DNA of 56,874 bases, from IMG/VR virus record IMGVR_UViG_3300020472_000030, positions 1 to 56,874 of that record; one strand, given 5' to 3'. The notes under the pieces are model-generated. The model was not told where the DNA came from. It saw nothing but the letters and a program-made list of their open reading frames with translations, and did not search any database. Shown here one piece after another: positions 10,743-32,497 of the stretch. The position numbers were made by a program, and so were the translations under genes. Within the stretch, counting starts at the first letter, position 1; every line of letters starts with the position of its first letter. The stretch comes from a virus (lineage: Duplodnaviria; Caudoviricetes).

Positions 10743-10794
10743 GACGCTCCTTAGTCAGGTAGGTAAAATCTTTTACTGCCCTACACATTGGAGC

Positions 10795-10823
10795 AAAAAA
10801 TACCTCGGGGGTTTCACCCGAGG
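10795..10823 (-). terminator. rho-independent terminator
   Basis: CCTCGGG/CCCGAGG stem followed by T-run on minus strand. Confidence 0.75.
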
Positions 10824-10829
10824 GAAGCA

Positions 10830-11174: not shown

Positions 11175-11250
11175 TTTGCGTTTTCCTCTTGTTTGTTGTT
11201 GCTGGAAATAAAATCGGTCGCCCATTGGTTTCCTCATTTTTAATAGTAGT

Positions 11251-11290
11251 ATTATCTCACGAATTAACGTTTGTGTCAAGAACTTTTTTT
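11251..11290 (-). promoter_or_regulatory. promoter, extended -10 class
   Basis: TTGACA-N17 with TGA-GATAAT. Confidence 0.7.
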
Positions 11291-11298
11291 GCTTTGCC

Positions 11299-11949: not shown

Positions 11950-12226
11950 TTAATTCATCCTCCAATTTAAATAGTAAACAGCACATAGCATGAGCAAGGT
12001 GTGATAACCCCGTCTCTTCATCGTTTTCTTCCCCGTCTATATGTGCAAAGATATGCCTCAAAGCAGCACTTGTGTATCTGTTTTGTAGATCATCTACTTT
12101 ACGCCAATTTTCGGGATCGTACTTTTCCGCACCATAAGTAAGAACTTTTCCTACTTCTAATATGGATTTAGGAGGTAATAGGTACAACTTCGGTTTATCT
12201 CCATCATACTTTCTACCTTCGCTCAT
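11801..12226 (-). CDS. dATP/dGTP diphosphohydrolase-like protein (DUF5664 type)
   Basis: GRKYDGDK..L, YGAEKY..NW, RH, ETGLSHLAHA motifs. Confidence 0.85.
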   Translation of the reverse strand: MSEGRKYDGDKPKLYLLPPKSILEVGKVLTYGAEKYDPENWRKVDDLQNRYTSAALRHIFAHIDGEENDEETGLSHLAHAMCCLLFKLEDELIAKSEEERSRETDTGKHSTCYESAVRGTSNNEKRSVRDFEYLLQHDPSK

Positions 12227-12228
12227 GT

Positions 12229-12468
12229 TTACCCCCAAGGTAACAAGGTCATACCAATCATATTTAGTATAACCTCAATTAAAATAAAAAATATTAAGCC
12301 TACTCCTATCTGCCATGCCCACCACTTCCAGCCTTCTAAATTAGAAGCCCAAGTAGCTAATTTACTTTCTCTGGCTTTGTCATAGGCTCCACTCTTTTCA
12401 CCTATTCTTTCAGCCCAATAATTTGGACTAACTATGTTCTTTAGTCCTTTGAGTATTTTAACTATCAC
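12229..12468 (-). CDS. membrane protein
   Basis: C-terminal hydrophobic helix; coupled GTG start. Confidence 0.65.
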   Translation of the reverse strand: MIVKILKGLKNIVSPNYWAERIGEKSGAYDKARESKLATWASNLEGWKWWAWQIGVGLIFFILIEVILNMIGMTLLPWG

Positions 12469-12617
12469 CTTTTAGGCCGATACCAGTTTCTACATTGAAC
12501 CATATTATCAAATTCACCCGTTGAGACTCCCTGTCTGCAGGTTTCATTCAGTTCTTTATTGCCAGGCTCAAAAATTGCAACCACGGTTAAAACCCCAATA
12601 ATTATTAGATAATCCAT
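12465..12617 (-). CDS. 50-aa protein with N-terminal TM helix
   Basis: AAGGAG RBS; MDYLIIIGVLTVVAIFEPG...CRNWYRPKR; not in ORF track. Confidence 0.65.
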   Translation of the reverse strand: MDYLIIIGVLTVVAIFEPGNKELNETCRQGVSTGEFDNMVQCRNWYRPKR

Positions 12618-12632
12618 TTGTACTCCTTACTT

Positions 12633-13205
12633 TTACCGAGATATTCGTTGTTGGTAATCTGCTTCATCTTCACGCCACCAAGGTGGCTTGTCTCGGTACT
12701 TCCATGAAGCAAACGTTGCTTTATCTTTGTGATAAAATTTTCGGTATGATACTACTGCATCAACTCCTTTGAGTTCCTCAGGCATAGCTTGAGCGAAAGG
12801 TGTGAGTCCAATTCGTGGTATAGATAAGGGCTCGGGTAGCTTGAGTATGACGTCATGCACTGATCTATGGCTTTTACCGTATCGGTATCCATACTCATCA
12901 TTGAGTGCAGTTGCATAACAGTGTAACCACTCGAAATTATCCATGCTAGTACGACTCCAGATAGTACAAGGATGGTTGTGCATTGTAGGTAAGTAAGGGA
13001 AGTCCCTTGGCTCATTTTGTTTTTTCTCTCTTAATAAAGCTAACTGTTCCTTGGTCAGCTTCTTGGGTACATACCCTAAGTATTTATCAACCCACATATT
13101 TGTACAAAGCATTTGAGCCGCCTCTAAAGGCATTTTGACAATATGTTTGTCAACATGATACTCTGCACATCTATCATGGTTTTGGTCTAATATAAAGATA
13201 TTCAT
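12633..13205 (-). CDS. pyrimidine-dimer DNA glycosylase-like protein (DenV-related)
   Basis: MNIFILD..HVDKHIVKMPLEAAQML, HNHPCTIW, EYGYRYGKSH, FAQAMP. Confidence 0.8.
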   Translation of the reverse strand: MNIFILDQNHDRCAEYHVDKHIVKMPLEAAQMLCTNMWVDKYLGYVPKKLTKEQLALLREKKQNEPRDFPYLPTMHNHPCTIWSRTSMDNFEWLHCYATALNDEYGYRYGKSHRSVHDVILKLPEPLSIPRIGLTPFAQAMPEELKGVDAVVSYRKFYHKDKATFASWKYRDKPPWWREDEADYQQRISR

Positions 13206-13212
13206 AAGCTAC

Positions 13213-13689
13213 TTACTTTATTTCCTTAGCTTGACATGCCATTGCTTCAACCATAGGAAGTAAGTTTTTTGCAATTAAATTATGTTCCTTTAAAATATCA
13301 AGCGATACCATACGCATTGAACTTTGTTGCTCATAAATACGCTCTATAACTTTTTCCGTACAGACAGGCGAAGGTTCAATTTGATACGTGTCAGCTATTC
13401 GCTCCTTAATCTCTAATTCGTTAGCTACTGCTATTAGTTTCTTTTTTAGTGCAGCTCCTTTGGTTAATTGCTCTGATACTCTCCAATCTGTTACTTTCTG
13501 AATAAATTGAGTAATAGTAGAATGTTTTTCACCCATCTTTAAATGTCGTTGTACAAGATTCTGCTGTTCATAAGTCCATACTAACTTAAGCATTTCTTCC
13601 AGAGTTACTTTAGAGTAGCCTTCTCTCTCATTCTTTTGTGCGACTGTCAGTGCACCCAACAGTATGTTTAACGTCTCTTCGTGTTTCAC
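13213..13689 (-). CDS. hypothetical protein
   Basis: GGAG RBS, 158 aa. Confidence 0.65.
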   Translation of the reverse strand: MKHEETLNILLGALTVAQKNEREGYSKVTLEEMLKLVWTYEQQNLVQRHLKMGEKHSTITQFIQKVTDWRVSEQLTKGAALKKKLIAVANELEIKERIADTYQIEPSPVCTEKVIERIYEQQSSMRMVSLDILKEHNLIAKNLLPMVEAMACQAKEIK

Positions 13690-13749
13690 CGTGAAACTCC
13701 TTATAATAATTCCGTGAAAATTAGATTAAAAATTAATCTTTCAACATAT

Positions 13750-13787
13750 ATTATACGGTAAAATAACCTCAATGTCAAGAACTTTTG
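13750..13787 (-). promoter_or_regulatory. sigma70-type phage promoter
   Basis: GTTC-TTGACA-N17-TATAAT. Confidence 0.85.
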
Positions 13788-13809
13788 ATAAAGTGGGGGA
13801 GTAGTTTCT

Positions 13810-14484
13810 CTAGTTATTCTCTTTATCTACCGCTTTTCGAACAGTTGGAAAATGTGTTCCTATAACATCCCAGCACTTTTTAGCTATATTAGCGTGTTCT
13901 TGTTGTGTCCCATTAGCCGTTCTCAGCCCACAATAATGGATCCAACTACGTAATGTTCCCGCCATATAGAGAGTAGTACCTGTCATTCCTTCTGGTAATA
14001 CTGCTCTTGCTTGTTCTTTTGCGATACCTGCTTTTAAGGCTGCCTCATATGCTTCTCTAGCAGTTTGCAATACAGCCGCTTGATTCATAGAGAAGTCTTC
14101 ATTAACACGCCTATGGTACTCATCTTCATAGTCTAGTCCGATGCTGTTTTGTCTATTTTTTTCGTCTTGCAGGCGTGATTCTCGTATTTCAAACGTATCA
14201 CTTACAGCATAGCGCTGGCTAAACTCTTGAAAAGAAAAACTTCGGTGACGTACTATTTGGTGGGAAATATCTCTTGTGGTCTGAATCTCCATAGTAAGAG
14301 ATACCATCTCAAAAGGACTCCAATGTCCGTGTTTGATTAAGTACGCTAACAGCTGAGAGGCTGTCTTTTTATTGTTTTGGTTATTAGGATTACTTACTCT
14401 TGCACAGTAAGCTATAAATTCATCAGCCGAAGAACAGTCTGTAATTGCCGACGGCTTGCTTAGAGCTACTAAAGCTACATTCAT
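13810..14484 (-). CDS. thyX: flavin-dependent thymidylate synthase
   Basis: HWSPFE, RHRSFSFQEFSQRY, EQARAVLP. Confidence 0.97.
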   Translation of the reverse strand: MNVALVALSKPSAITDCSSADEFIAYCARVSNPNNQNNKKTASQLLAYLIKHGHWSPFEMVSLTMEIQTTRDISHQIVRHRSFSFQEFSQRYAVSDTFEIRESRLQDEKNRQNSIGLDYEDEYHRRVNEDFSMNQAAVLQTAREAYEAALKAGIAKEQARAVLPEGMTGTTLYMAGTLRSWIHYCGLRTANGTQQEHANIAKKCWDVIGTHFPTVRKAVDKENN

Positions 14485-19498: not shown

Positions 19499-19740
19499 CA
19501 AATCGTAAGATGATCTAGTCAATCGACAACTTCTTATAACCTATGCTGGCGAAAAGAGTTTGAATATTTATGCAATTGGAGTGGAAGCGGAATTAAGGGA
19601 GCTTCCGTCTCCAAATCCATAATATTATGAAAAGTGCTCTTGAGTCAGCATAATCCCAAATCCTACCGATTCAATTTTAAGGAATCTCGACAACTATTAT
19701 GACCGCGTAAATTCGATACGGTCATAATACCCCGCCTTTT
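19499..19740 (+). ncRNA. candidate structured ncRNA (long rod with central bubble plus 3' hairpin)
   Basis: Nested inverted repeats 19503-19690, no substantial ORF, upstream promoter, 11-bp hairpin 19695-19729. Confidence 0.6.
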
Positions 19741-19829
19741 ATTCCTCCTATTTATCTAAAAATTCGTCTTAATTTTGTCCAATTCGCCACAATTCAAAAT
19801 TTTTTTACCCGTATTCCTTTTCCACAATT

Positions 19830-19931
19830 TTAAAAGATTGTACTTAAGGCCGTTAGCAGGATAAATATAGGTATGGTTATTATAGCGATCAGGGTTAACA
19901 TCTGTAGAAACTGTTCAATAAATTCATCCAC
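19830..19931 (-). CDS. 33-aa membrane peptide
   Basis: MDEFIEQFLQMLTLIAIITIPIFILLTALSTIF. Confidence 0.4.
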   Translation of the reverse strand: MDEFIEQFLQMLTLIAIITIPIFILLTALSTIF

Positions 19932-19946
19932 CCGTTGAGACCCCGC

Positions 19947-20030
19947 TTAAAGGTTTGTAAATGCGTGTAAGAATATAGCACCCGCAAAGATTACCAACCC
20001 CGCTACGACTATTAATTGCTCATCCCACAT
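19947..20030 (-). CDS. 27-aa membrane peptide
   Basis: GGAGG RBS; MWDEQLIVVAGLVIFAGAIFLHAFTNL. Confidence 0.55.
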   Translation of the reverse strand: MWDEQLIVVAGLVIFAGAIFLHAFTNL

Positions 20031-20319
20031 ATTCCCCTCCGTCAAATTCCTCTCCAGAATTTCGATTTTTAACTGTATTGTACCCATTTTCTTCATAAAA
20101 GTACCGTCCGTATTTAGCAATAGTCTGCCACTTTTTCTTTAGAACTGCGTCTCGGTTTACAATACCATGTTCAGTCATTAAGTGTATAAAAGCCATTACG
20201 TCCCCGCACTCTTCTTCTAACCTGCCTATCCATTCTTCGTCTTTGTGCCTTAAAACCTTCGCACAGGCTTGCGTTAGCTCACCACATTCTTCCATGAGCT
20301 TAATATAGACATTATTCAA
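20020..20319 (-). CDS. MazG-like nucleotide pyrophosphohydrolase domain protein
   Basis: LMEECGELTQA..K, LEEECGDV. Confidence 0.75.
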   Translation of the reverse strand: MNNVYIKLMEECGELTQACAKVLRHKDEEWIGRLEEECGDVMAFIHLMTEHGIVNRDAVLKKKWQTIAKYGRYFYEENGYNTVKNRNSGEEFDGGEYVG

Positions 20320-20630
20320 TTTAATTCCTTAAGAGATTCCTCTAGTTTTTTGAGCGTTGCTTTTGGAGCTTTTTCCAAGCCCGCCAGAGACTCCACTTCG
20401 ATTCCAAGAGAATCAGCGATATTTGAAACGATTTCCACTTTTGTGACAGGTAATTCCCCAGTCTTAGTTTTATAGATTTCACGTCGATATACTCCCTCCC
20501 TTGAAAGTTTTCCTATTATTGATTTTATACTCTTGTTGAGTTCACTAGCCAAAGATTCAACAGTTGCCCTATTAGGGTTGCTTCTATACTCCTTAACTAT
20601 GTGTTGAGTCTGTTCCTCACTGTAGTTCAT
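20316..20630 (-). CDS. T5 A2-like DNA-binding protein (paralog 1)
   Basis: NYS...SIIGKLSREGVY...LAGLEKAPKATL. Confidence 0.7.
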   Translation of the reverse strand: MNYSEEQTQHIVKEYRSNPNRATVESLASELNKSIKSIIGKLSREGVYRREIYKTKTGELPVTKVEIVSNIADSLGIEVESLAGLEKAPKATLKKLEESLKELN

Positions 20631-21024
20631 CCATTTGACCTTTTATAAATTTAGTTACGGTTTCCATAAATTGTTGAATTTCTTTCATCTGATCCCCCTC
20701 TCGATTTTTTACTTTTTCTGGTTCAGGAGCAGCAAGCTCAAGCGTAATTTCTTCTACATCGCCTTCGCACTTAGCAATAACTTGTGTACAATACTCTAGT
20801 ACTCCAGCAGGAATATTTTCAGCACCAATGGCAGCTGCATACTCCATTACTAAAGAATCGTAGCGGGTTTGTAGATGTCCACACTCTTGCTCTATTTCCC
20901 GAGAAGTAACAAAGAGTTGAGTTAATGTCTCAAATCTATCCGTTATTTCCTCTTGTAAATTAGTTATTTCGTTTGCAATATGATCTACTTTCCGATCAAT
21001 CGGAAACTTTATTACATTGCTCAT
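20617..21024 (-). CDS. coiled-coil hypothetical protein
   Basis: AGGAG RBS; MSNVIKFP start. Confidence 0.7.
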   Translation of the reverse strand: MSNVIKFPIDRKVDHIANEITNLQEEITDRFETLTQLFVTSREIEQECGHLQTRYDSLVMEYAAAIGAENIPAGVLEYCTQVIAKCEGDVEEITLELAAPEPEKVKNREGDQMKEIQQFMETVTKFIKGQMDELQ

Positions 21025-21178
21025 GTACTTCTCCTGTTATATCTTTAACCGTTAGCGGTCTAAATTCCCTGTTTGGCTTCTTCGTAAGTAGTGGACAGGG
21101 AATAAACTCCGACTTTTTTCTGTTAAAAATCGGATCGGGCACAAAAGGTGCTTTCTTTTTAAACATAAAAATTCTCAC
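20996..21178 (-). CDS. hypothetical protein
   Basis: First sizeable ORF after promoter 21198-21226. Confidence 0.45.
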   Translation of the reverse strand: MRIFMFKKKAPFVPDPIFNRKKSEFIPCPLLTKKPNREFRPLTVKDITGEVHEQCNKVSD

Positions 21179-21197
21179 TTAAAATTTTCATCTGAGT

Positions 21198-21236
21198 ATT
21201 ATCGCACGAATAAGCATCCATGTCAAGAATTATTTT
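21198..21236 (-). promoter_or_regulatory. promoter, extended -10 class
   Basis: AAAATAATTC-TTGACA-N17 with TGC-GATAAT. Confidence 0.75.
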
Positions 21237-21240
21237 AACT

Positions 21241-21307
21241 CACCCATAAAAAAACCGCCATTCGATTGCTCAAATGGCGGTTCCAGCTTTCTGCTTTTTT
21301 ATGGGTG
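21241..21307 (-). terminator. nested terminator hairpin
   Basis: AACCGCCATT/AATGGCGGTT stem with T-run, enclosed by CACCCATAAAAAA/TTTTTTATGGGTG. Confidence 0.8.
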
Positions 21308-21504
21308 TGCCTACATTATGTCGCGGCAGAAGGATCAAACAGAAGTCTAAAACCCAAAACCTTCTAGCTGTCCGAGTTAGCCAACTCCCTAATCGCCTTC
21401 AAATCCGTCCGATTAGGTGACGCCGGTGGGTGTAACCACCTGTAGCAGTACGATGCTAGCTAGACGATTTTATTAGCGAGATCCGTCCAAACTCTCATTT
21501 TGTA
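21241..21504 (-). ncRNA. candidate multi-branch structured ncRNA with intrinsic terminator
   Basis: At least 8 hairpins between promoter 21511-21540 and terminator 21241-21307; only a 12-aa ORF. Confidence 0.65.
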
Positions 21505-21510
21505 GAACAT

Positions 21511-21550
21511 ATTATCTCACAAATTTAGCACTTATGTCAAGAATTATTTT
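21511..21550 (-). promoter_or_regulatory. promoter, extended -10 class
   Basis: AAAATAATTC-TTGACA-N18 with TGA-GATAAT. Confidence 0.7.
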
Positions 21551-21560
21551 CGCTCAGGTA

Positions 21561-21905
21561 CTATATGTTTTTATTCCACTTATCTACTATCCAGTAACTA
21601 ATTCCTTCTTTGCTATTGGGATTAGCTACTTCAACTCGGGAACGAAACCAGCATCCACAACAATCGTGAGTATGACCGCAAGGCTTTGTTTTTTCAAAGG
21701 ACAAAGCTAGATGTGCTACTATAACGTCACGAGTTATGTTCTTTTTATTGTTAGTAACGTGGAGTTTCCACATGCTGTACATTTCTTCGCCCAGCTCATC
21801 CTGCATGTCCATAAAACCTATAGACACCTGAGCATCTATTGATCTAGCTAGGCTTGCTACTGCCCACCCGTACTTTTCTTTAATCTGGTTGAATTCCCAA
21901 AGCAT
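21561..21905 (-). CDS. hypothetical protein with CGHxHDCCGC motif
   Basis: AAGGAG RBS; Cys/His cluster. Confidence 0.75.
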   Translation of the reverse strand: MLWEFNQIKEKYGWAVASLARSIDAQVSIGFMDMQDELGEEMYSMWKLHVTNNKKNITRDVIVAHLALSFEKTKPCGHTHDCCGCWFRSRVEVANPNSKEGISYWIVDKWNKNI

Positions 21906-22001
21906 ATTTTCTCTCCTTTCCTACCACGAAAGGGGACATGAAGTCCCCTGAGGTGGTGGGGGCTTTTGTCATCGACAGGGCGCCCCACAGACCTTTTGTG
22001 A

Positions 22002-22370
22002 TTAAGAAATAGCTGCTAAAAGCTTTTCCAAGTCACCGAAGCCAGCCTTGTTTAGGCTTGCGAACTCAACATTGAGTTGCGCTTCGATTTGTGCTACCAA
22101 ATCAGCTTTTCTCACCTGAGGTGGACGCTTGGTAGGCTTAGCTTGGGCAACGTATACACCCAGAGCAGAGAGCTTAGCGATAACACTTCGCTCAGTTTTG
22201 TCAAAGTCCAACGCGAGTTGATTAACAGTAACGCGAGTTGGGTTAGCTTCATAAGCTGAAACCATGCTGTCGATAACTTCCTGAGGGTAGTTATTGCTTT
22301 TGTTTGCTGTCATAGTCATATTAGGTCTCCCGATCCCAAAAAATTTATTTAATGTTGCTCTCAATTTCAT
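22002..22370 (-). CDS. T5 A2-like DNA-binding protein (paralog 2)
   Basis: NYP...SVIAKLSALGVY...FASLNKA; alternative RBS-led start at 22319. Confidence 0.7.
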   Translation of the reverse strand: MKLRATLNKFFGIGRPNMTMTANKSNNYPQEVIDSMVSAYEANPTRVTVNQLALDFDKTERSVIAKLSALGVYVAQAKPTKRPPQVRKADLVAQIEAQLNVEFASLNKAGFGDLEKLLAAIS

Positions 22371-22376
22371 AATACT

Positions 22377-22415
22377 ATTATCTCATCAAAAAGCGGTCAT
22401 GTCAAGATATTTTTT
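22377..22415 (-). promoter_or_regulatory. promoter, extended -10 class
   Basis: TTGACA-N17 with TGA-GATAAT. Confidence 0.7.
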
Positions 22416-22814
22416 CCATTTCCTCCACATTTTTTTCTCCGCTTTTCGTGCTTCCACTTCCCAAGGAGCGCTCCAATAGTCTCCTTGAAACGACTTGCCC
22501 TTGAACATAGCAGGTCTACCTAAATCCAGTCCATCAAACTCATACTGCTTAACGTGAGTCATTTCGTGGAATACGGTCATAAGCGTCAGCCTATCACTAT
22601 AGCGATCAGATATACGAATTACATACTCATCGTCTAGTTGAAACGCATCACCAAATGCACTTTTAAATCGAGTGAGTACAATGGTAAGCCTATCACTAGC
22701 GATTGTTAAATCCCATAATCCGTACTGATCTACTGCCCAACAGGCTGCTCGATTCACGAGATCGCGCCTATGTGACGGCCAATAGCCTTTTTTAAATTTG
22801 GTTTTTATTCGCAT
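22386..22814 (-). CDS. zinc metallopeptidase-like protein
   Basis: HEMTH (HExxH) and downstream PWEVEA. Confidence 0.8.
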   Translation of the reverse strand: MRIKTKFKKGYWPSHRRDLVNRAACWAVDQYGLWDLTIASDRLTIVLTRFKSAFGDAFQLDDEYVIRISDRYSDRLTLMTVFHEMTHVKQYEFDGLDLGRPAMFKGKSFQGDYWSAPWEVEARKAEKKMWRKWKKYLDMTAF

Positions 22815-22838
22815 GTTATTTCCTTAATTTCTGGATAT

Positions 22839-22867
22839 ATTATATAAGCAACAGCATCTGTTGTCAA
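22839..22867 (-). promoter_or_regulatory. sigma70-type promoter
   Basis: TTGACA-N17-TATAAT. Confidence 0.8.
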
Positions 22868-23022
22868 ATAAATTTGCGCCTAATCGTGAAAAAAACGCAA
22901 GGGAATTCCGGGGGGCCGCGCGCGGGGTCGTGAAGTCAAGTAATTTTCGCACATTTGCTGCAATTTTCATCAATTTTCGGCGGGGATGAGCAGACTTCCC
23001 GAATTATAAAGAATTTTGTGCG

Positions 23023-23236
23023 ACCCCGCAAAAATTTCTTGACATGCGTCGCTTTTGCACGTATACTGGCGCGGGGACGCTTCGGTTTTGCACTCTGGCG
23101 CAGGAAGACCTGGGAAAGTTAAAAAAATTTGGTCCACACCCGCAAAAAAGACTTGACATTCTTCGCTTTTGCACTTATTATGGCGCGAGCAACACCATTT
23201 AAATACTACTTCACTTTCGCACTGGCGCCCGCGCGC
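23023..23236 (+). repeat. imperfect direct repeat (period 114 bp), each unit with a promoter-like sequence and TTTYGCAC/TGGCGC motifs
   Basis: CCCGCAAAAA..CTTGACAT..TCGCTTTTGCAC.TAT..TGGCGCG near 23025 and 23139. Confidence 0.8.
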
Positions 23237-23314
23237 CAAAAATCTGGATTTTTCAAGATTTTTCGAGGGGCTGGAGGCCGCATTTTTAAAGGGCTGTAGA
23301 GCAGGGTCGCGGCA

Positions 23315-23330
23315 TGTTTCACGTGGAACA
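23315..23330. promoter_or_regulatory. parS: parS site (chromosomal ParB-binding palindrome)
   Basis: TGTTTCACGTGGAACA; reverse complement TGTTCCACGTGAAACA matches the consensus TGTTNCACGTGAAACA exactly. Confidence 0.75.
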
Positions 23331-23927
23331 AACCGCGCAGAGTAGCTGTAATAATCGCGTGATTCCTTTTTGCTTATCATTGTAGTTGACAGTATGCCAA
23401 TCCTCGCCTACCACGCGCTCTTTTAATAGTGTCATGCGGTCATAGTGAGAAAGCGCATTTTCGTCATTTTGCGAAAATTTCCAGTAAGTAAGCGGTGAAA
23501 TTTTTCGCGCTTGTATTCGCTTTTTTTGTTCCGCTTCAGAAATCGAGAGCCAGAATTTAATGAAAGTGACATCGTGTTGAACCTCATTTTCCCAGTATTC
23601 GTATCTGTCTAAAAAAGCGTTGTATTGGTTTTGAGAGCACCAGCCATTCATATGTTGAACCATCGCGCGGCTATACCATGATCGGTCATAAAAAACGATT
23701 TGACCTTGCGCGGGCATTTTTCCGTTCCACCATTGCCACCAATTAGCCATTGCGGTAACGGATGGCTTTGTTGATGGCACGATGCTATACCATGCCGGAT
23801 TTAAGTATTCGGTAACTGCCCGAATTGTTGAAGATTTTCCGGCGGTATCGCGTCCCTCTAAAACGACAGCGATTTTATTTTTGTTCGCTTCCGCGATTTG
23901 GTTTAATTGTGCTTGTAATTTTTTCAT
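23319..23927 (-). CDS. ppk2: polyphosphate kinase 2
   Basis: LEGRDTAGKS, FYDRSWY, IKFWLSISEAEQ..R, WKFSQND; ATGA-coupled start at 23927. Confidence 0.93.
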   Translation of the reverse strand: MKKLQAQLNQIAEANKNKIAVVLEGRDTAGKSSTIRAVTEYLNPAWYSIVPSTKPSVTAMANWWQWWNGKMPAQGQIVFYDRSWYSRAMVQHMNGWCSQNQYNAFLDRYEYWENEVQHDVTFIKFWLSISEAEQKKRIQARKISPLTYWKFSQNDENALSHYDRMTLLKERVVGEDWHTVNYNDKQKGITRLLQLLCAVCST

Positions 23928-24481
23928 AGTGCATAACCTCGTTCCTCTGGATTTTCTAGTGGTAGTGGACAACCGTGTATTCCGGTTTTTCGTTTCCAGT
24001 TTACAATTTCTAAGCCAAGCGCACGATTTGCTTTTCTGTGAGCATTTGCAAATTTTACCTTTGCCAATTTTACCGGCATATTGAAAAATTCGCTGTGACC
24101 TCCAACCGGATTTTTTGTCGTTTTCAAATCGCGGAATAATCCAGCAAGCCGATATTTTTTATTCGCTTTGTGGAAATATTGTTCGCTAGAAAGTGTCTCG
24201 TCAAATGTGCCAGTAGTCAGCGCAAGCAATTCAGCGCGAAGCGAACCTTCCGGCAAATTGTGACATTCTTCTATATTGCGTAATGTCTCAATTAAGCGAG
24301 ATTCAACGCCAGAAAAACCGCCAGCGCGACAGTATTTAGCAAAGCCGTTTTTTATAACGGTCATATTCCGAAACGCTGGAACGTGTTTGCCAAGTCCGTG
24401 TAATTTCCATAGATAGTTAAAACCGAAATCGTCAAATGGCGATCCATCTATTGAGTTTGGTGAGTGTGTAGATTTAAGCAT
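23924..24481 (-). CDS. hypothetical protein
   Basis: 185-aa coupled ORF. Confidence 0.75.
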   Translation of the reverse strand: MLKSTHSPNSIDGSPFDDFGFNYLWKLHGLGKHVPAFRNMTVIKNGFAKYCRAGGFSGVESRLIETLRNIEECHNLPEGSLRAELLALTTGTFDETLSSEQYFHKANKKYRLAGLFRDLKTTKNPVGGHSEFFNMPVKLAKVKFANAHRKANRALGLEIVNWKRKTGIHGCPLPLENPEERGYAL

Positions 24482-24950
24482 TTTTTTGTGCCTCGTTATA
24501 ATTAGTAGGATTATAGCATCGAATACCGAAACCAGTCAAGCATTGTCGAACGCTATTATTATCATCAAACATATAAGCATTTGAGCGAATCCATGCGAGC
24601 GATTTTCTCATATCAACGCGCAATTTTAAAATCATGCGTTTTTTAAGAATGTCATCCGGTGTAGTGTCACCAAATGCGCGGCTATAAATATAGTCATATT
24701 CTAGCGCGTTATCTTGCAAAAATTTTAAATCTGCTTTTCCGATAACTCTAGCGGTCATGATTGCGATTTGATCCCGTTCGCGGTTAATCGTTTTCCATGA
24801 ATCCGCCAAAGGTAGGAGCGAATCAAGCGCGATTTTTTCGGGCGTGTTATTCTTAATCCAATCCGCGAGATTAAGAGAGCCATCGGGCAGAGTATTCTGG
24901 CGATGGCTTGAGTCGATGGCAGTACCATCTAAGTCAAAAATAAAGAGCAT
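24474..24950 (-). CDS. HAD-family phosphatase
   Basis: FDLDGT, MTAR, conserved K, FDDN motifs I-IV. Confidence 0.88.
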   Translation of the reverse strand: MLFIFDLDGTAIDSSHRQNTLPDGSLNLADWIKNNTPEKIALDSLLPLADSWKTINRERDQIAIMTARVIGKADLKFLQDNALEYDYIYSRAFGDTTPDDILKKRMILKLRVDMRKSLAWIRSNAYMFDDNNSVRQCLTGFGIRCYNPTNYNEAQKNA

Positions 24951-25137
24951 ATAAGTATCCTATAATTCCAATCGTATTAAGTATCATTAAGTTATATAGC
25001 TTACAGGAGTGCGCTTGCAAAGTCAACAAAGCCAATCCAGATATAGCTAACAATTTTCCGATAGTTGAGTCAATTAGGAAGGGAGCGACTGCCATGCAGA
25101 CAGTCCCAACCCAAGCCGAGAAAGTAATGAGCATCAA
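24934..25137 (-). CDS. small multi-TM membrane protein
   Basis: Three hydrophobic segments; coupled start. Confidence 0.7.
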   Translation of the reverse strand: MMLITFSAWVGTVCMAVAPFLIDSTIGKLLAISGLALLTLQAHSCKLYNLMILNTIGIIGYLYALYF

Positions 25138-25424
25138 GCGATGCTCATTAGTAAGGCAGACAAGGAGCGAGTAGTCGCACCTTCCAAACCATCGAGATTT
25201 TCGCCCTGTAGAGCGTTCTCGATAGCTTCCACCAATTCTTTTTTGGTGGATTTTGCAGAAGCATTTTTTGCTTCTGGCTTCTGGTACAAGCCGAGAAGCA
25301 CAGCTTTTGAGATGACGGAACGAACCGACAAACCAAATTCTGAAGCGAGAGAATCCGCGACAGTGCGAGTGATGGGAGCCGAATCCATCATTTGAGCGAC
25401 CATTTTTTCAGTATAGTTAGACAT
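25134..25424 (-). CDS. T5 A2-like DNA-binding protein (paralog 3)
   Basis: AGGAG RBS; NYT...SVRSVISKAVLLGLY...LDGLEGAT. Confidence 0.7.
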   Translation of the reverse strand: MSNYTEKMVAQMMDSAPITRTVADSLASEFGLSVRSVISKAVLLGLYQKPEAKNASAKSTKKELVEAIENALQGENLDGLEGATTRSLSALLMSIA

Positions 25425-25437
25425 AAGAGTCTCCTAG

Positions 25438-25551
25438 TTAGTTTAAGATTAGCCAAACAATGCCACCGATGACGATGATGTCAGCGGTCACAGAGTAGAG
25501 CATGTAAGCCCGAATGAGCCAAGTAGTTAATGTTTTATTTTTCATTTTCAT
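25438..25551 (-). CDS. 37-aa membrane peptide
   Basis: ATG 7 nt after -10 box; C-terminal TM. Confidence 0.55.
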   Translation of the reverse strand: MKMKNKTLTTWLIRAYMLYSVTADIIVIGGIVWLILN

Positions 25552-25558
25552 AGTGCCT

Positions 25559-25587
25559 ATTTTACAGGGTTCTTTCCCAAATGTCAA
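25559..25587 (-). promoter_or_regulatory. pre-early-type promoter
   Basis: GG-TTGACA-N17-TAAAAT. Confidence 0.7.
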
Positions 25588-25688
25588 CCCTAAAAGCGAC
25601 ATTTTTTTGCCCATTTGCGACATTGGTATTATTACCAAAATCATGCGTTACCATATTATTTCCTTATTTATTTATTTAATATGCGCGT

Positions 25689-25717
25689 ATTGTAGCACAC
25701 CCAGCCGAGAAAGTCAA
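25689..25717 (-). promoter_or_regulatory. pre-early-type promoter
   Basis: GG-TTGACT-N17 with TGC-TACAAT. Confidence 0.7.
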
Positions 25718-25876
25718 CCCCCAATCATGGAGATATCATGGAAATGTTTGGTAATATTCACAAAATAAAAAAGTCTTTATATATCAATAGGTTAGGGGCG
25801 GTTCCTAGACTTGACATGAGGTCGCGCGGCGGGGCACCCCCTCACGTACAACTTTGGGTTTTTTGAAAACACCTTT

Positions 25877-25916
25877 AAAAATTGTTCTTGACATTTAATG
25901 TCATTTTTAGTATAAT
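25877..25916 (+). promoter_or_regulatory. sigma70-type late-region promoter
   Basis: AAAAATTGTTC-TTGACA-N17-TATAAT. Confidence 0.85.
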
Positions 25917-25923
25917 TTTTTAC

Positions 25924-27450
25924 ATGGCAACTTATCGAGCGACTTTTACTCTCCCACAATATCAAGGCGGAACTCCTGGGCACTATCCTATAGTAGATGG
26001 AGGTACTTATGACCTCTATGCAGGGAATACTCAAGTTAATAGTGAGGTGTATGCTCCTGGACTAACGATGTATTTCAAAGATAGTGATAGTGTTGGGGTA
26101 ATCGTAAATCATGGAGGAGCAGGTTCTAATACTTCTATAATGTATAATGACACCGGTTTCCAAGACGAGCCCGATCCTACTAGCCCGTCAGGTCTAGGAG
26201 CACAAGCTAGCGGCACTACATGGAGCAGAACTTGGGACGATGAAGATGACTATACCATGAATTGGTGGTGGTGGGGAAATAATGATTCAACCACCGCCTA
26301 CTATACTGGTAGAGCCCAATTTCAAAGAATAGAATGTACTGCCGGCGGCTTAGGAAGTAGTAATGTCGCTCAAGGTTCTACCCTTACAATTACTCCCACT
26401 ATAAAGACTGCATTAAGTGGAAGTTCAATGCTTACTGCTAGTGGTTCTAATGGTCACAAATGTTTTTTAAAGATATGGACTACAACAAGTAATGGCTCGG
26501 TTATAAATTTACCTATTCATACAACAGGTACCAACGGCTTTACTTGGTCTAATAGTGGTAGTTCTACTGGTTTTATCAGAAGCACTAATACATCGGACAC
26601 AGTTACCGTAGGGTCAGGAGTAGCCACAGGAAAGTATAGAGTTACAGTCTGTCACTATAACCCTTTTAGTACTTCAACTTCGGGAGATAAATATACCAAT
26701 CCTTATTATGGTTTAGACCAAAATATGGGTAGTTTTGTTTTTGATGTAGTTGAGCCTAGTGATAGTACTCCTAATGACATTGATTTGCGATATTCTGCTT
26801 CCACCAATAATGTTACAGGGGCTGGGGGCGGAAATACTTTTCAAACAGAAAATGCTCCTTTAACGGGGTTTAACCAAACTGTTACTCCCACCATTACAGG
26901 AGGAGAATACCAAGTTAATAGTGATGGAAATTGGTGGAGTACACAAGGTAATAGAGATACGGTAGTAACAGGCGACTATATTAGAGTTAGGGGAGTTGCA
27001 AGTACTACATATGGAGGTGTAACAAGTGTTGTCCTAACTATTGGTTCTATGACCGAAACATGGACAATAACTACAGAAAGCGATCCAGGTGGTGGGGGCA
27101 CAGGCACAGGGGGCGCAGGTTCAACCAATTACGGGTTAATAGTTTATAATAGCGATGGGGACGAAGTAATTTTTGGGCCTAACCAAAGAGCCATGCATGT
27201 ACTGGGTCATAGTTCTAGTAGTATTAGTATTGGACCTTCTACCACATACGGTAGTTCAACACTTACTCCTGTAGAAGGAATGACAACTAATAATCAAGAC
27301 ACAATAGGAGTCCTTGTAGGAGGTACTCCAATAGTATCTTCATTCGGTCAATTATTAACAATTACCTATTATAATGGGTATTTTACTATTAGAAATAATT
27401 CAACTACTCTTACTTTAGCCGATATAAGATGGTATGCAATAAGGTATTAA
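25924..27450 (+). CDS. putative receptor-binding/tail-tip protein
   Basis: G/S/T-rich beta protein at the T5 pb5-equivalent locus; C-terminal YGLIVYNSDG domain; ATG 25924. Confidence 0.65.
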   Translation: MATYRATFTLPQYQGGTPGHYPIVDGGTYDLYAGNTQVNSEVYAPGLTMYFKDSDSVGVIVNHGGAGSNTSIMYNDTGFQDEPDPTSPSGLGAQASGTTWSRTWDDEDDYTMNWWWWGNNDSTTAYYTGRAQFQRIECTAGGLGSSNVAQGSTLTITPTIKTALSGSSMLTASGSNGHKCFLKIWTTTSNGSVINLPIHTTGTNGFTWSNSGSSTGFIRSTNTSDTVTVGSGVATGKYRVTVCHYNPFSTSTSGDKYTNPYYGLDQNMGSFVFDVVEPSDSTPNDIDLRYSASTNNVTGAGGGNTFQTENAPLTGFNQTVTPTITGGEYQVNSDGNWWSTQGNRDTVVTGDYIRVRGVASTTYGGVTSVVLTIGSMTETWTITTESDPGGGGTGTGGAGSTNYGLIVYNSDGDEVIFGPNQRAMHVLGHSSSSISIGPSTTYGSSTLTPVEGMTTNNQDTIGVLVGGTPIVSSFGQLLTITYYNGYFTIRNNSTTLTLADIRWYAIRY

Positions 27451-27453
27451 AAT

Positions 27454-28125
27454 ATGACATATGGATTAGAAATAACAGGTGCCGATGGCATTTATCAACT
27501 AAATAGTAATACTGCTGGTACTAAATATTTGGGAGTGCATGTAAACACTAGTACAACTGCTTTGAACACTGATGTAACAGGCTTCGGTGCTGGTGATTTT
27601 GTATTTGTAAAGCCCAAAAGTAATAACTCCTCTTATTCTAATATGTCAATATGGAGTGCGGGTTCTGTACTCAAATTTGGAGCTCATGCAGACTATCTTA
27701 TCTTAAAAATTTCAACCTCTTTAAGCGATTCGGGTGGTTCGGATTATGGAATATCAGTTACAAATAACGGGAACACGGAAATTTTTAATACAAAAAAGTT
27801 AAATAAGGGAGGAGTAGAAGTCCTAGCTATTAAAGACGAAAATAGTCTTGATGGAGGCGGTGGTACAAACGGTCCTCCCGCTAGCGGTAATGTTATATAT
27901 CAGGCTCCGTCTGGAGGAAATTTAAATAATGTGTGGTTTGGTACAGGAGCAGGGGCTTCGCTTTATGGTTCTGGGTACACCATAAATAGTTGTTATTATG
28001 ACTATACTAATATGCGCATTCTATTTCAGTCTTGGGTGGATTTAGCAGGGGTTCCAGGAGGCGGCGATTCTTTCGCGCCCTTAGGAAACGGAGGAAAAAT
28101 ACTAATAGGAGAATTACACGAATGA
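27454..28125 (+). CDS. putative tail-tip accessory protein
   Basis: Two YG[LI]x[IV] repeats (MTYGLEITG, DYGISVTN). Confidence 0.6.
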   Translation: MTYGLEITGADGIYQLNSNTAGTKYLGVHVNTSTTALNTDVTGFGAGDFVFVKPKSNNSSYSNMSIWSAGSVLKFGAHADYLILKISTSLSDSGGSDYGISVTNNGNTEIFNTKKLNKGGVEVLAIKDENSLDGGGGTNGPPASGNVIYQAPSGGNLNNVWFGTGAGASLYGSGYTINSCYYDYTNMRILFQSWVDLAGVPGGGDSFAPLGNGGKILIGELHE

Positions 28126-28580
28126 GTGGAAAAATATTAACAAGAGTAAATTCAGAGGGGCATATTATAACGTTTTACAGAACAGGCCCTCTCCCACCTA
28201 TAGAGGAAGGAACTGTTGATGGTATAACAACAGTATATGTAGATCAATCGGAAGCTTCTATTTCAAATTTAAATTTGTGGGTGGATACTCATTACTATAA
28301 AGACGGTGAGTGGAAAGAACGATCTGAGCCCCCAGGCGATTGGTACGATTGGAAGAACGAGGCCTGGACACCTAATACCACTGTTGTATATGAAAAAATT
28401 CGAAGACAAAGACATATACTACTACATGAAACAGATTGGACTCAATTTGCAGACAGTCCTTTGTCCGATGAAAAGAAGGCAGAATGGGCGGCATACCGAA
28501 AAATATTAAGAGATATTCCGGAGGATCAATCAACTCTAGACCACCCCAACGCAGTAGTTTGGCCCTCAAAACCATCATAG
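28122..28580 (+). CDS. tail fibre assembly chaperone
   Basis: R..LL.ETDWTQFAD.P....EWAAYRKILRDIP...WP. Confidence 0.85.
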   Translation: MSGKILTRVNSEGHIITFYRTGPLPPIEEGTVDGITTVYVDQSEASISNLNLWVDTHYYKDGEWKERSEPPGDWYDWKNEAWTPNTTVVYEKIRRQRHILLHETDWTQFADSPLSDEKKAEWAAYRKILRDIPEDQSTLDHPNAVVWPSKPS

Positions 28581-28620
28581 AAAAATTTTTCTTGACTTTG
28601 CATCCTGTTTTGAGTATAAT
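28581..28620 (+). promoter_or_regulatory. sigma70-type promoter
   Basis: TTGACT-N17-TATAAT. Confidence 0.85.
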
Positions 28621-28626
28621 TCCCTC

Positions 28627-29091
28627 ATGGCTAAAGAAGTAACAACAATTTCTCCGGAAGGACTTGAAGTAGCGAACTCGTACCTGACTCTTGGTAATAT
28701 TAAGGGAGTATGCCAAGATCTAATGGTTGATGAAAAGAAGGTTGTGGATATACTAAATCGACGAGAAGTTAAAAAGTATATCGATACTGTTTACCTCGAT
28801 ACGGGGTATCGAAACAAAAATAACATCGGATCCTTGTTGGACGAGATGATTAATTCGAAGCTTGAAGAAGCACAGGAAAGCGGTGTGTATTCCAGCAAGG
28901 ACTTAGCTGACTTACTACAGCTGGCACACAAAATGCGTATGGATGAGATAAAAGCTCAAGCAGAGCTAGAAAAGGCATCCGCTTCCAATATTAAAAATCA
29001 GACAAATGTTCAGATTAATGAGGGAGTACCATTCGGTCAGGGTAATTATGGCAAGTTAATGGACAAACTCTTAAATGGAACACCAGCCTGA
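28627..29091 (+). CDS. terminase small subunit (T5-like)
   Basis: ISPEGLEVANSYL, YLDTGYRN, NYGKLMDKL; T5 synteny. Confidence 0.8.
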   Translation: MAKEVTTISPEGLEVANSYLTLGNIKGVCQDLMVDEKKVVDILNRREVKKYIDTVYLDTGYRNKNNIGSLLDEMINSKLEEAQESGVYSSKDLADLLQLAHKMRMDEIKAQAELEKASASNIKNQTNVQINEGVPFGQGNYGKLMDKLLNGTPA

Positions 29092-29278
29092 TTTAAATGA
29101 ATTACACACACGTTTTTCAACTCATGAAGCTCAATGCGAGGAGAGATGGAAAACTATCTTTAGCCGGTTGCAGGAAATAGAAAGAAAGCAAGATAGACTA
29201 CAGTTTTTGTTGTTGGGAGCAACAGGAACAGTAATCATCTTTTTAGGGAGTATTATACTTACACTACTTAACGGGTAG
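29075..29278 (+). CDS. XhlA/holin-like small membrane protein
   Basis: HEAQCEERW coiled coil plus C-terminal TM. Confidence 0.6.
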   Translation: MEHQPDLNELHTRFSTHEAQCEERWKTIFSRLQEIERKQDRLQFLLLGATGTVIIFLGSIILTLLNG

Positions 29279-29309
29279 TCGACGTTCCCCGAGAACGTAG
29301 AGATAATGT

Positions 29310-29756
29310 GTGGAGCCAATCACAGCTGCAGTGGCAGCTTTTAGTGCTGTTAAAAAAGGTATCCAAGTTGGAAAAGAACTGCATGATATGGCAGGGGATA
29401 TCGGCAAACTCTGGGGCGGAATAGATGCTGCTAGAGGTGCGCACAAACAAAAGAAAGACGGACAGTTTATATCTGTAGAGGAAGAAGCTTTACAAACCTT
29501 TGCGGCAAAAAGAAAAGCGGATGAAATTGAAAAAGAACTAAGGGAGTTCATAATTTATACGCTCGGTGGAGCAGCATGGACTCAGTTAATTGAGATTCGC
29601 GGGCAAGTCAGAAAACAAAGAATAGAAGCAGCTGCGGCAGCCCGACGAAAAAAGAGAAAAGTCATTGAAGCAGGAATCATGGTATTAGTTTTACTATTTG
29701 GATTTGGAGTTCTAGGCTACATGGGCTTTATAGTGGTAACACATGGAAACTTTTGA
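29310..29756 (+). CDS. helical protein with C-terminal TM anchor
   Basis: 148 aa; similar architecture to next ORF. Confidence 0.75.
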   Translation: MEPITAAVAAFSAVKKGIQVGKELHDMAGDIGKLWGGIDAARGAHKQKKDGQFISVEEEALQTFAAKRKADEIEKELREFIIYTLGGAAWTQLIEIRGQVRKQRIEAAAAARRKKRKVIEAGIMVLVLLFGFGVLGYMGFIVVTHGNF

Positions 29757-31192: not shown

Positions 31193-32497
31193 ATGACGAT
31201 TGAAATTAGTAGGAGGGATGTTACATCCAACCAACTATTAGAGTTACAATCTGAGACAAGGTTTCTCAAATTACCAGTAGATCCATATTTGGAACTACTC
31301 GGCGTAACGCCACTTGCTAGTCAGGTGGCGATTATCAACGCGATCAACAATCCGAAATACCGTTTTGTGTGTGCGGCAGTTTCGAGAAGGCAGGGTAAAA
31401 CCTACATCGCAAATATAATAGGGCAGCTGGTATCATTAGTGCCCAACTCTAACATACTCATAATGTCTCCCAACTATGCCTTGTCTCAGATTTCTTTTGA
31501 CTTACAAAGAAATCTGATTAAGCATTTTGACTTGGAAGTTGCGAAAGACAATGCGAAAGATAAGGTTATAGAGCTAACAAATGGATCAACTATACGTATG
31601 GGAAGTGTTAATCAAGTGGATAGCTGTGTTGGTAGGAGTTACGACCTTATCATCTTTGATGAAGCCGCTTTGGCTGATGGAAGAGACGCCTTCAATGTTG
31701 CCCTTCGTCCGACACTCGATAAAGATAACTCAAAAGCAATATTCATAAGCACACCAAGAGGAAAGAACAACTGGTTTTCAGAGTTTTTCTACAGGGGATT
31801 TAGCGATGACTTTTCAGAGTGGGCGTCTATTCGGGCTACTTATAAAGATAATCCGCGTATGTCTGAAACTGATATTGCGGAAGCTAGAAAATCTATGTCC
31901 GAGGCCGAGTTTCGACAAGAGTATGAAGCTGACTTTAATACCTATGAAGGTCAGATCTGGAACTTTAACCATGAAGTCTGTATCGGAAACTTCGATGAAA
32001 TTGACACCTCAAAGATGGATGTCTTTGCGGGACTGGATGTTGGTTACAGAGACCCTACGGCCTTTTGTGTAATTGGCTATGACTGGGACGAAGAAAAGTT
32101 CTACTTGTTAGATGAGTACTTAGATGCAGAACAAACCACAGAAACACACGCACGAGAAATACAAAAACGAATTGATAGGTGGGACATAGATTATATTTAT
32201 ATTGACTCCGCTGCACAGCAGACCCGTTTCGATTTTGCTCAGAACTACGATATATCGACAATCAATGCAAAGAAATCAGTTTTAGACGGTATAGCACAAG
32301 TGGCAGGAATAATAGACAATGATAAATTACTTGTCGAACAGACTTGTAAACAATCTCTTTCAGCGTTAGATCAGTACCAGTGGGACCCCAATCCAAACCT
32401 AGTTAAAGAGAAACCGAAACACAATTATGCATCACACATGGCGGATGCGTTAAGGTATGCATTGTACTCATTTGAGACTTCGGCAATAAGTTTTTAG
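31193..32497 (+). CDS. terminase large subunit
   Basis: SRRQGKT, IIFDEAA, ISTPRG, GLDVG..D, H.ADALRY. Confidence 0.97.
   Translation: MTIEISRRDVTSNQLLELQSETRFLKLPVDPYLELLGVTPLASQVAIINAINNPKYRFVCAAVSRRQGKTYIANIIGQLVSLVPNSNILIMSPNYALSQISFDLQRNLIKHFDLEVAKDNAKDKVIELTNGSTIRMGSVNQVDSCVGRSYDLIIFDEAALADGRDAFNVALRPTLDKDNSKAIFISTPRGKNNWFSEFFYRGFSDDFSEWASIRATYKDNPRMSETDIAEARKSMSEAEFRQEYEADFNTYEGQIWNFNHEVCIGNFDEIDTSKMDVFAGLDVGYRDPTAFCVIGYDWDEEKFYLLDEYLDAEQTTETHAREIQKRIDRWDIDYIYIDSAAQQTRFDFAQNYDISTINAKKSVLDGIAQVAGIIDNDKLLVEQTCKQSLSALDQYQWDPNPNLVKEKPKHNYASHMADALRYALYSFETSAISF

Follow-up and report, generated by a model that had tools for sequence, protein, structure and literature searches.

The two-step injection of phage T5 is a classic unsolved problem, in which the A1 protein, a nuclease, is seen as indispensable and as common to all members of the family. 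A1 is held to be essential for the second-step DNA transfer and for the destruction of host DNA, and it is a hallmark of the family. A 2026 preprint reports A1 in 227 of the 227 Demerecviridae genomes it analysed, and A1 and A2 as both essential in T5 (10.64898/2026.04.02.716235). In T5 the genes follow the order A2, T5.005 (a membrane protein with two transmembrane segments), A1, T5.003, T5.002 and dmp. Here we analyse a minus-strand operon of about 2.4 kb that ends in a gene for polyphosphate kinase 2 (PPK2). It lies in a whole IMG/VR virus record, IMGVR_UViG_3300020472_000030 (56,874 nucleotides, class linear, CheckV completeness 59%), called the window from here on. We give a probability of about two in three to the following reading: positions 22841-25836 are a direct terminal repeat of about 3.0 kb in an abundant, uncultured marine T5-like siphovirus, and they carry a reduced pre-early-type module without A1. 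An earlier interpretation of the locus, as a minimal pre-early operon with PPK2 and no A1 nuclease, is supported by indirect evidence; PPK2 proves to be a frequent but optional cargo.

The list of open reading frames (ORFs) contains the coupled operon that the sequence-only reading had described. It consists of five overlapping minus-strand genes from 25424 to 23319, with one or more small membrane peptides ahead. The last four gene junctions overlap by 4, 17, 8 and 4 nucleotides, and the first junction is a gap of 13 nucleotides. The genes are, in the order of reading:

25654-25562, minus strand: ORF of 30 amino acids upstream of the 37-amino-acid peptide; its reality is doubtful.
25551-25438, minus strand: peptide of 37 amino acids with one hydrophobic segment at residues 17-37 (hydropathy).
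25424-25134, minus strand: putative A2-like DNA-binding protein of 96 amino acids; phrog_1725 at 1.2e-5.
25137-24934, minus strand: small membrane protein of 67 amino acids with two to three hydrophobic segments (hydropathy).
24950-24474, minus strand: predicted HAD phosphatase of the Dmp family, 158 amino acids; phrog_415 at 2e-19.
24481-23924, minus strand: p185, an orphan of 185 amino acids, core gene of the operon and candidate GIY-YIG-like nuclease.
23927-23319, minus strand: PPK2, 202 amino acids from the ATG (217 from an upstream TTG); PF03976.

The 96-amino-acid protein may be a member of the A2 family. T5 A2 itself matches phrog_1725 at 4.3e-52. An hhalign comparison of the 96-amino-acid protein with A2 of T5, My1 and VspSw_1 gives a probability of 86% (E 4.8e-6, 66 columns), and pairwise BLASTP against T5 A2 gives no significant match. 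The 158-amino-acid HAD protein is, judged by its sequence, a member of the T5 Dmp family and a predicted phosphatase. T5 Dmp (244 amino acids) matches phrog_415 at 3.6e-57. The two proteins share 34% identity over 87 amino acids of the N-terminal half (BLASTP, E 1e-8), with the DLDGT motif aligned; a search of PDB sequences with the HAD protein gave no useful match. The 67-amino-acid membrane protein has no family match in Pfam or PHROG. The 37-amino-acid peptide is kept in relatives at 50-100% identity. We compared the gene order across 65 fetched loci, and the A2-like gene, the membrane protein and the HAD gene are constant wherever their part of the operon is covered.

Three independent lines of indirect evidence place this operon in a terminal repeat. 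They are the end motifs, a CpG island and the contig depth. The gene maps agree with the earlier observation on its site: the operon stands between the late genes for the receptor-binding protein (RBP) and terS and the T5-ordered early genes, which is the site of the T5 terminal repeat. Three features mark the predicted repeat:

25811-25797, minus strand: outer (left-end) motif AGTCTNNNNACCGCC, lying ahead of the operon promoter and found nowhere else in the window in exact form.
22839-22880, minus strand: inner-end signature GG[GC]GCAAWW, a short gap and TTGACAA, overlapping the 12/12 promoter of the next gene.
22841-23318: non-coding block, GC-rich and conserved in relatives, the inner part of the predicted repeat.

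The outer motif is found at positions 28-42 of T5 and 27-41 of My1, and again in the T5 right repeat, 27 nucleotides from its end. Vibrio phage VspSw_1 and Aeromonas phage AhSzq-1, whose records are collapsed, have it between dmp and terS, and its strand there is the one that T5 would predict. It is exact in 19 marine relatives, and forms with one mismatch occur in three further loci (L011, L012 and L270). In total, 23 of the 318 fetched loci carry the outer motif, plus the AhSzq-1 locus (L319), against about 1.5 chance matches expected in 3.24 Mb; it is at the expected place in T5, My1, VspSw_1, AhSzq-1 and the mapped relatives, and the other matching loci were left unchecked. One related contig (G034) ends within this motif. 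Likewise, the inner signature begins 38-39 nucleotides before the end of the left repeat, at 10181 of 10219 in T5 and at 12815 of 12854 in My1. It is also present in four relatives (L010, L258, L290 and L315). By analogy with these phages, the physical left end is predicted about 25-27 nucleotides upstream of the outer motif, near 25836, and the inner end of the repeat near 22841. The predicted terminal repeat would then extend over about 22841-25836, or about 3.0 kb, comprising the operon and the non-coding block.

The excess of CG dinucleotides is the strongest compositional feature of the window. It had been noticed from the letters alone, and the counts bear it out: the operon has 60.8 CG per kb (observed/expected 1.40), with 32.0 (0.84) in the left flank and 26.4 (0.71) in the right one. 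In the sliding-window check that had been proposed, the eight densest windows of 600 nucleotides all fall within 22501-25200. The top-scoring CpG segment is 22553-25397, with a score of 61, and the runners-up reach 8.5 and 6.6. This island extends over the non-coding block 3' of PPK2. Inside it, CGCG is 12.9-fold and GCGC 7.8-fold denser than elsewhere, and CGC makes up 49% of the arginine codons against 5% elsewhere. The island was found in seven of the seven relatives examined. Among them are relatives with no more than 35-65% identity in the operon proteins, and one that has no PPK2 (G038). Since diverged relatives share it, the island is a maintained property and not a fresh import.

The reference regions were T5 1-14000 (L002), My1 1-30000 (L317), VspSw_1 (L318) and AhSzq-1 (L319):

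T5 left repeat: 52.5 CG per kb against 23-31 in the flanks; observed/expected 1.31 against 0.70-0.82.
My1 left repeat: 47.8 CG per kb against 22.7 in the flank; observed/expected 1.04 against 0.59.
AhSzq-1, dmp-A1-A2: 74.2 CG per kb against 27.6 in the flank; observed/expected 1.09 against 0.60.
VspSw_1, A2-A1-dmp (weaker): 54.9 CG per kb against 36-39 in the flanks; observed/expected 1.03 against 0.76-0.80.

The best CpG segment of T5 is 157-9991, and its annotated repeat is 1-10219. As an observation on cultured Demerecviridae, their pre-early regions are CpG/GCGC-rich islands, with observed/expected values of 1.0-1.3 against 0.6-0.8 in the flanks, and the T5 island stops at the repeat boundary. 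The terms 'codon usage', 'GC content' and 'dinucleotide' are absent from the Davison preprint, and the wider literature on the island was not searched.

The third line is the depth, taken as the per-contig k-mer figures of Logan contigs in the metagenomic runs X1, X2, X3 and X6. In X1 and X2, the k-mer depth of contigs that lie within the predicted repeat is about 1.8-fold that of the flanks, with a range of 1.7-1.9. For X2, the flanking exact-match contigs have depths of 26.2-28.9, and the inside ones 46.6 (22911-24381) and 51.5 (24457-25105). The contigs that cross the borders show intermediate values. Across the outer border, the contig 25076-28601 of X1 and X2 has a depth of 31.1, and a two-level mix (about 26 and 52) predicts 31.6. 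Across the inner border, the X1 contig 22113-24381 has 40.8, with about 41.6 from the model. Solved from the two-level model, the borders fall at 22.81-22.87 kb and 25.63-25.80 kb. In X3, which comes from an independent study, the flanks have 5.3-7.5 and a contig starting at 22833 has 18.9. Finally, one contig of X6 ends at 25835. The depth excess is supporting evidence for the repeat, not proof of it.

The same data could come from an ordinary early or host-takeover operon in single copy, with no terminal repeat. The island would then reflect codon adaptation or gene origin, and the depth would come from related strains. Depth is indeed known only at the level of contigs and gives no copy number. 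Other bins also have peaks of summed depth from other strains, for example at 28621-29221 and 31626-32226. All related records are classed as linear in IMG/VR, and none has end repeats. Nevertheless, the excess is seen on exact-match contigs, its limits agree with two independent sequence signatures, and three boundary-spanning contigs fit the two-level depth model. The operon proteins are 58-95% identical among the closer relatives (down to 35-37% in L012), not better conserved than terL (83-95% in the 80 closest loci). The same island is present in the pre-early regions of T5, My1 and AhSzq-1. We consider the single-copy operon unlikely on these grounds.

The terminal-repeat reading describes the module as lacking A1. 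No A1-like ORF had been apparent on first inspection, and this holds in the searches: within the window, neither the T5 A1 protein nor phrog_1745 gives a match at E<=10. Where T5 has A1, between the membrane protein and the Dmp-like gene, the operon here has no gene. The proposed search with a hidden Markov model of A1 was extended beyond the window, and A1 was detected neither in 48 related records nor in a composite genome of about 79 kb. For the phrog_1745 profile, there is nothing at E<=1 in 31 records sharing terL or the operon, and nothing in 17 records that continue past the two ends of the window. As a control, T5 in the same search gave two matches at 9e-246. Pfam is unusable for this purpose, because T5 A1, Dmp and A2 match no Pfam family.

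The composite consists of two long relatives. G034 (43,195 nucleotides) runs from tail fibres through ribonucleotide reductase (RNR), D15-D10, PhoH, polymerase and early genes up to the operon. G038 (45,966 nucleotides) begins in the early genes, crosses the operon and the structural genes and reaches the same tail fibres. With an overlap at each of the two joins, the pair gives a circle of about 79 kb. The D10-D15 genes, the RNR genes and the tail fibres are present in this circle, and A1 is not.

It is quite improbable, in our judgement, that A1 is present and was missed, being too diverged, split, or encoded in a part of the genome outside the contigs. The case for it is that the window is 59% complete by CheckV, that the composite was built from different strains, and that a preprint reports A1 in 227 of 227 Demerecviridae (10.64898/2026.04.02.716235). 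However, G034 and G038 overlap each other at either end and so complete a circle. Only two window ORFs of at least 300 amino acids have no family match, namely the RBP-like protein and a 435-amino-acid protein of the structural block. Moreover, a plain tblastn search with T5 A1 matched 1135 phage records. Vibrio T5-like phages were found at 32-35% identity (E 1e-55 to 4e-65), and the search reached even Caulobacter, Agrobacterium and Flavobacterium phages at 31-38% identity.

The last gene of the operon encodes a secure member of the PPK2 family, in a compact form, as its sequence indicates. It matches PF03976 at 3.5e-42, with 145 bits against a cut-off of 22.3 (144.8 bits in a second scan). 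The nearest solved structures are the C-terminal domain of 3czp (1.7e-40) and Francisella PPK2 (2.4e-34). The stretches EGRDTAGKS and YDRSWY and the lid stretch ending in WKFSQND align with 3czp and 5llb. We take these to be the Walker A, Walker B and lid motifs. A PADLOC scan of ten proteins gave marginal matches only, the best being PPK2 against PDC-M51B at 4.3e-5.

PPK2 is present in 14 of the 22 relatives that span the operon to the gene of a 142-amino-acid protein beyond it, a set that was not de-duplicated. In at least 11 loci it stands before p185 instead of after. Its presence in 14 of 22 marks it as accessory cargo of the repeat, and the predicted tapping of polyphosphate on entry would therefore be optional for the lineage. 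A tblastn search with PPK2 against 50,697 phage records matched 15 records, none of them T5-like. Virus-encoded ppk2 genes are listed by environment as auxiliary metabolic genes in metagenome surveys (PMC13188868). Our literature search found no paper placing PPK2 in a T5-type terminal repeat or in a first-expressed operon.

The operon could also be foreign DNA of recent origin, a moron island that brought in PPK2 and whose CG richness is a donor trace unrelated to infection timing, as its distinct codon usage (CGC 49% against 5% of arginine codons), the mobility of PPK2 (lacking from 8 of 22 relatives, and ahead of p185 in at least 11 loci) and the ppk2 genes reported from metagenome surveys (PMC13188868) might suggest; yet the island spans the phage-type A2-like and Dmp-like genes and the non-coding block, beyond PPK2, and it is kept in relatives with 35-65% operon protein identity and in G038 without PPK2, which leaves this origin very improbable.

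Several points weigh against the terminal repeat as we read it. The operon reads inward from the predicted left end, while A2, A1 and dmp of T5 are read toward the end. The end motifs are an empirical regularity of four reference phages and no established terminase site. DnaA boxes (up to one mismatch) number 14 in the window against 15.5 expected, with none in 22815-25881, so nothing shows a pausing of injection. The depth is a figure per contig, which co-occurring strains can inflate and which is no copy number. X1 and X2 are possibly the source sample of the window, and possibly one data set filed twice. The composite circle joins contigs of different samples at 72-93% identity. The 96-amino-acid protein is only weakly assigned to the A2 family. 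Two more A2-like paralogues also lie beside the predicted repeat and outside it, at 22002-22370 and 20316-20630. The first of them matches phrog_1725 at 3.2e-4, and both are 30-40% identical to each other and to the operon copy (tblastn in relatives). PPK2 is missing in 8 of the 22 relatives. Finally, the nuclease reading of p185 stands on low scores (VIA-align Z no higher than 5.0, Foldseek E no lower than 0.11).

The p185 gene follows the HAD gene in all covered loci except L011 and L012. The protein has 72 homologues, all of them metagenomic and without a Pfam family, and 45 related clusters among 1.84 billion representatives. No Pfam family was found for 37 members, and no PDB profile match at E<=10. 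In the ESM Atlas, the best score (0.81) is at chance level. The AlphaFold model of p185 has a pLDDT of 85.3 and a pTM of 0.84. In Foldseek, one GIY-YIG enzyme, R.Eco29kI, fills each of the six best rows (E 0.11-0.48, below the tool's trust level). At the top of the VIA-align list stand four rows, HIGLE, Slx1 (two entries) and PD-T4-3, with Z values of 4.6-5.0, also below the trust level of that tool. Lower rows include I-TevI (3.8, rank 8), R.Eco29kI (3.2, rank 18) and T4 EndoII (3.0, rank 24). For one distant member of the p185 family, the top Pfam match is T5orf172 (E 0.14, below the cut-off). This domain presumably belongs to the GIY-YIG clan. The fold matches of the predicted model have low scores but all point one way, and they weakly suggest p185 as a candidate GIY-YIG-like nuclease.

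In L011, the slot of p185 (9244-9903 of that locus) holds a protein of 219 amino acids that matches phrog_192, 'DNA polymerase exonuclease subunit', at 1.1e-5. We take its sequence to contain DEDD-type motifs; it has no useful match among PDB sequences. L012 also has no p185 in the slot, and of the two, only the slot gene of L011 was examined. The two loci carry a second copy of the small transmembrane peptide ahead of PPK2. Two unrelated nuclease-like proteins in one slot are a lead, not a finding; we put the chance that the slot supplies a nuclease at about even. A complex prediction of the A2-like protein with p185, made to see if p185 replaces A1 as the partner of A2 and for which controls were not run, gave a score of 0.00 and no verdict.

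The operon had been credited with its own promoter type. This is borne out only in part: the operon promoter lacks the TTCTTGACAT form that 11 exact sites of the window share, and it is still sigma-70-like. Two sites were found by the consensus scan:

25717-25689, minus strand: predicted operon promoter, TTGACT-17-TACAAT with TG before the -10 element, 10/12 matches.
25587-25559, minus strand: second promoter-like site, 11/12 matches.

The second site ends about 7 nucleotides ahead of the ATG of the 37-amino-acid peptide, so the message of this peptide could be leaderless.

By analogy with T5, the non-coding block after PPK2 appears to occupy the place of the injection-stop region. It contains, or borders on, the following elements:

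23315-23330: parS-type palindrome of 16 bp over the stop codon of PPK2, the single exact match in the window.
23008-23187: two direct repeats of 66 nucleotides, spaced 114 nucleotides, conserved in relatives.
23039-23067 and 23153-23181, plus strand: near-consensus sigma-70 promoter-like sites in these repeats, 11/12 matches each.

We take the palindrome to be the host-type parS consensus. It is also exact in 31 fetched loci. No ParB-like match was obtained among the window ORFs in general Pfam and PHROG scans, and no dedicated ParB search was run. The promoter-like sites of the repeats face the 3' end of the operon, antisense to it, and are followed by CTGGCGC. No gene or Rfam family was found downstream of them, and the consensus scan gave no terminator-like site after PPK2.

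For the predicted repeat, the observations cover gene content, synteny, composition, end motifs, the excess of depth and the absence of A1; from them we infer the physical ends, the first expression, the two-step entry and all enzyme activities. The operon genes would enter the cell first and be expressed by the unmodified host machinery, with which a host-like, CpG-rich codon usage would fit. Transcription by the sigma-70 RNA polymerase of the host would start at the predicted left end and proceed inward. It would cover one or two small membrane peptides, the A2-family protein, the small membrane protein and the Dmp-family HAD phosphatase, in this order. Then would come a variable nuclease slot (p185, or a DEDD-type exonuclease in some relatives) and, in about two thirds of relatives, PPK2. 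The non-coding block, with its host-type parS and outward-facing promoter-like repeats, would stand in place of the DnaA-box stop region of T5. The protein of the nuclease slot and the Dmp-like phosphatase may have the DNA and nucleotides of the host as their targets, in the manner of A1 and Dmp in T5. PPK2 might re-phosphorylate nucleoside diphosphates, perhaps monophosphates, from host polyphosphate and thus provide an early supply of nucleoside triphosphates (NTPs).

The overall plan of the window is T5-type (PHROG scans), and the Demerecviridae-type set and order of replication and structural genes are present in it. Its two sides are:

1-22814, minus strand: replication side, with PhoH, DNA polymerase, primase, DnaB-like helicase, D5-like regulator and a split NAD ligase; further, a regulator, a D3-like protein and a D2-like helicase, then thymidylate synthase and lysis genes.
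From 25882, plus strand: structural side, with an RBP-like protein of 522 amino acids, a fibre-assembly chaperone (PF16778), terS, terL and portal; after the portal, a protease/capsid gene and tail genes.

The order D2, D3, regulator, ligA, ligB, D5, D6, primase and polymerase is the T5 order. A protein of 149 amino acids (10830-11279), the best phrog_1725 match in the window, was tried as A2 and rejected, being the D3 orthologue by synteny. The tRNA and Rfam scans of the window gave no match. The first gene past the predicted repeat (22386-22814) encodes the 142-amino-acid protein, in which there is an HExxH motif; the homologue in L011 passes the cut-off for the SprT-like metalloprotease family (PF10263, 8.4e-7). 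On the other side, the RBP-like protein (25882-27450) is 26-41% identical in relatives, against 80-99% for adjacent genes. Its gene, one of host recognition, is hypervariable and immediately adjoins the predicted end of the genome.

The terL protein shares no more than 49.5% identity with its counterpart in any cultured phage, with Vibrio T5-like phages and Pectobacterium phage My1 as top matches. A megablast search of phage records found no near relative of the window. Marine metagenomes often contain the lineage: a scan with terL gave matches to at least 600 IMG/VR stretches, and the stretch 19500-29400 was found in 20 listed runs of 8 studies, labelled marine, seawater or marine plankton (one with a coded name). 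Some longer records were also seen. In X3 and X6, from different studies, the field 'longest_record' gives 81,634 and 81,549 nucleotides, and a p185 homologue is present on a contig of 77,936 nucleotides. The latter is not among the 58 loci of the metagenome scan. These three lengths are near what the composite (about 79 kb) would reach with one additional repeat of 3 kb.

A lineage without A1 that keeps the T5 plan, an A2-like gene and Dmp would offer a natural comparison of what needs A1 and what replaces it. A broader proposal is that the whole, globally abundant marine T5-like lineage does without A1 and lives its first minutes from a 3-kb repeat. Small, interchangeable nucleases (the GIY-YIG-like orphan or a DEDD exonuclease) would stand in for the nuclease function of A1, and the parS and outward-facing promoter repeats, as other sites for host factors, for the DnaA-box stop signal. 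An optional PPK2 would make NTPs from host polyphosphate and from nucleotides set free when host nucleic acids are broken down. We hold this proposal to be tentative and rather doubtful. If it were true, the CpG/GCGC island together with AGTCTNNNNACCGCC would generally mark, throughout Demerecviridae, the repeat that enters first. In collapsed T5-like assemblies, the island and the motif could mark the ends and offer a practical way to find terminal repeats. PPK2 in a first-entering module suggests that some ocean phages use host polyphosphate at the start of infection, which would matter where phosphorus is scarce.

Compared with solved enzymes, the PPK2 of the window is short: 202 amino acids against 263-304, or about 60-100 residues fewer. 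Its alignment omits about 45 N-terminal residues of these enzymes, and the C-terminal tail is also shorter. It matches Francisella tularensis 5llb and 4yeg, Sinorhizobium 3czq and the C-terminal domain of P. aeruginosa 3czp at E values of 1.7e-40 to 2.7e-31. The polyphosphate:AMP phosphotransferase and class III chains give 2e-17 (5o6k), 1.3e-16 (5lc9) and 5.6e-11 (6au0), so it is nearer to the 3czp C-terminal domain, Francisella and 3czq/6dzg than to those chains. The ppk2 genes of PMC13188868 are likewise on viral contigs; unlike ours, none is placed in a T5-type repeat in the accessible part of that source.

Among cultured Demerecviridae, VspSw_1 and AhSzq-1 also have a short pre-early operon beside terS, with the end motif between operon and terS. 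However, A1 is retained in both, flanked by A2 and dmp; their operons are read toward the end, and PPK2 is absent.

The T5 repeat is longer, with 10.2 kb and 17 genes against about 3.0 kb and 5-7 genes in the predicted repeat here. Our locus has neither A1 nor a DnaA-box injection-stop region; PPK2, p185 and the parS site are present here and not in T5. The likenesses with the T5 left repeat (NC_005859, 1-10219) begin with the site, between the RBP/terS late end and the early genes. Both have an A2-family gene (putative here) followed by a small membrane protein, and a Dmp-family phosphatase (predicted here); the 67-amino-acid membrane protein has the same place after A2 as T5.005. Both carry AGTCTNNNNACCGCC near the outer end and GGGGCAAAA...TTGACAA near the inner end, and in both a CpG/GCGC-rich island ends at the repeat boundary, which is a predicted one here.

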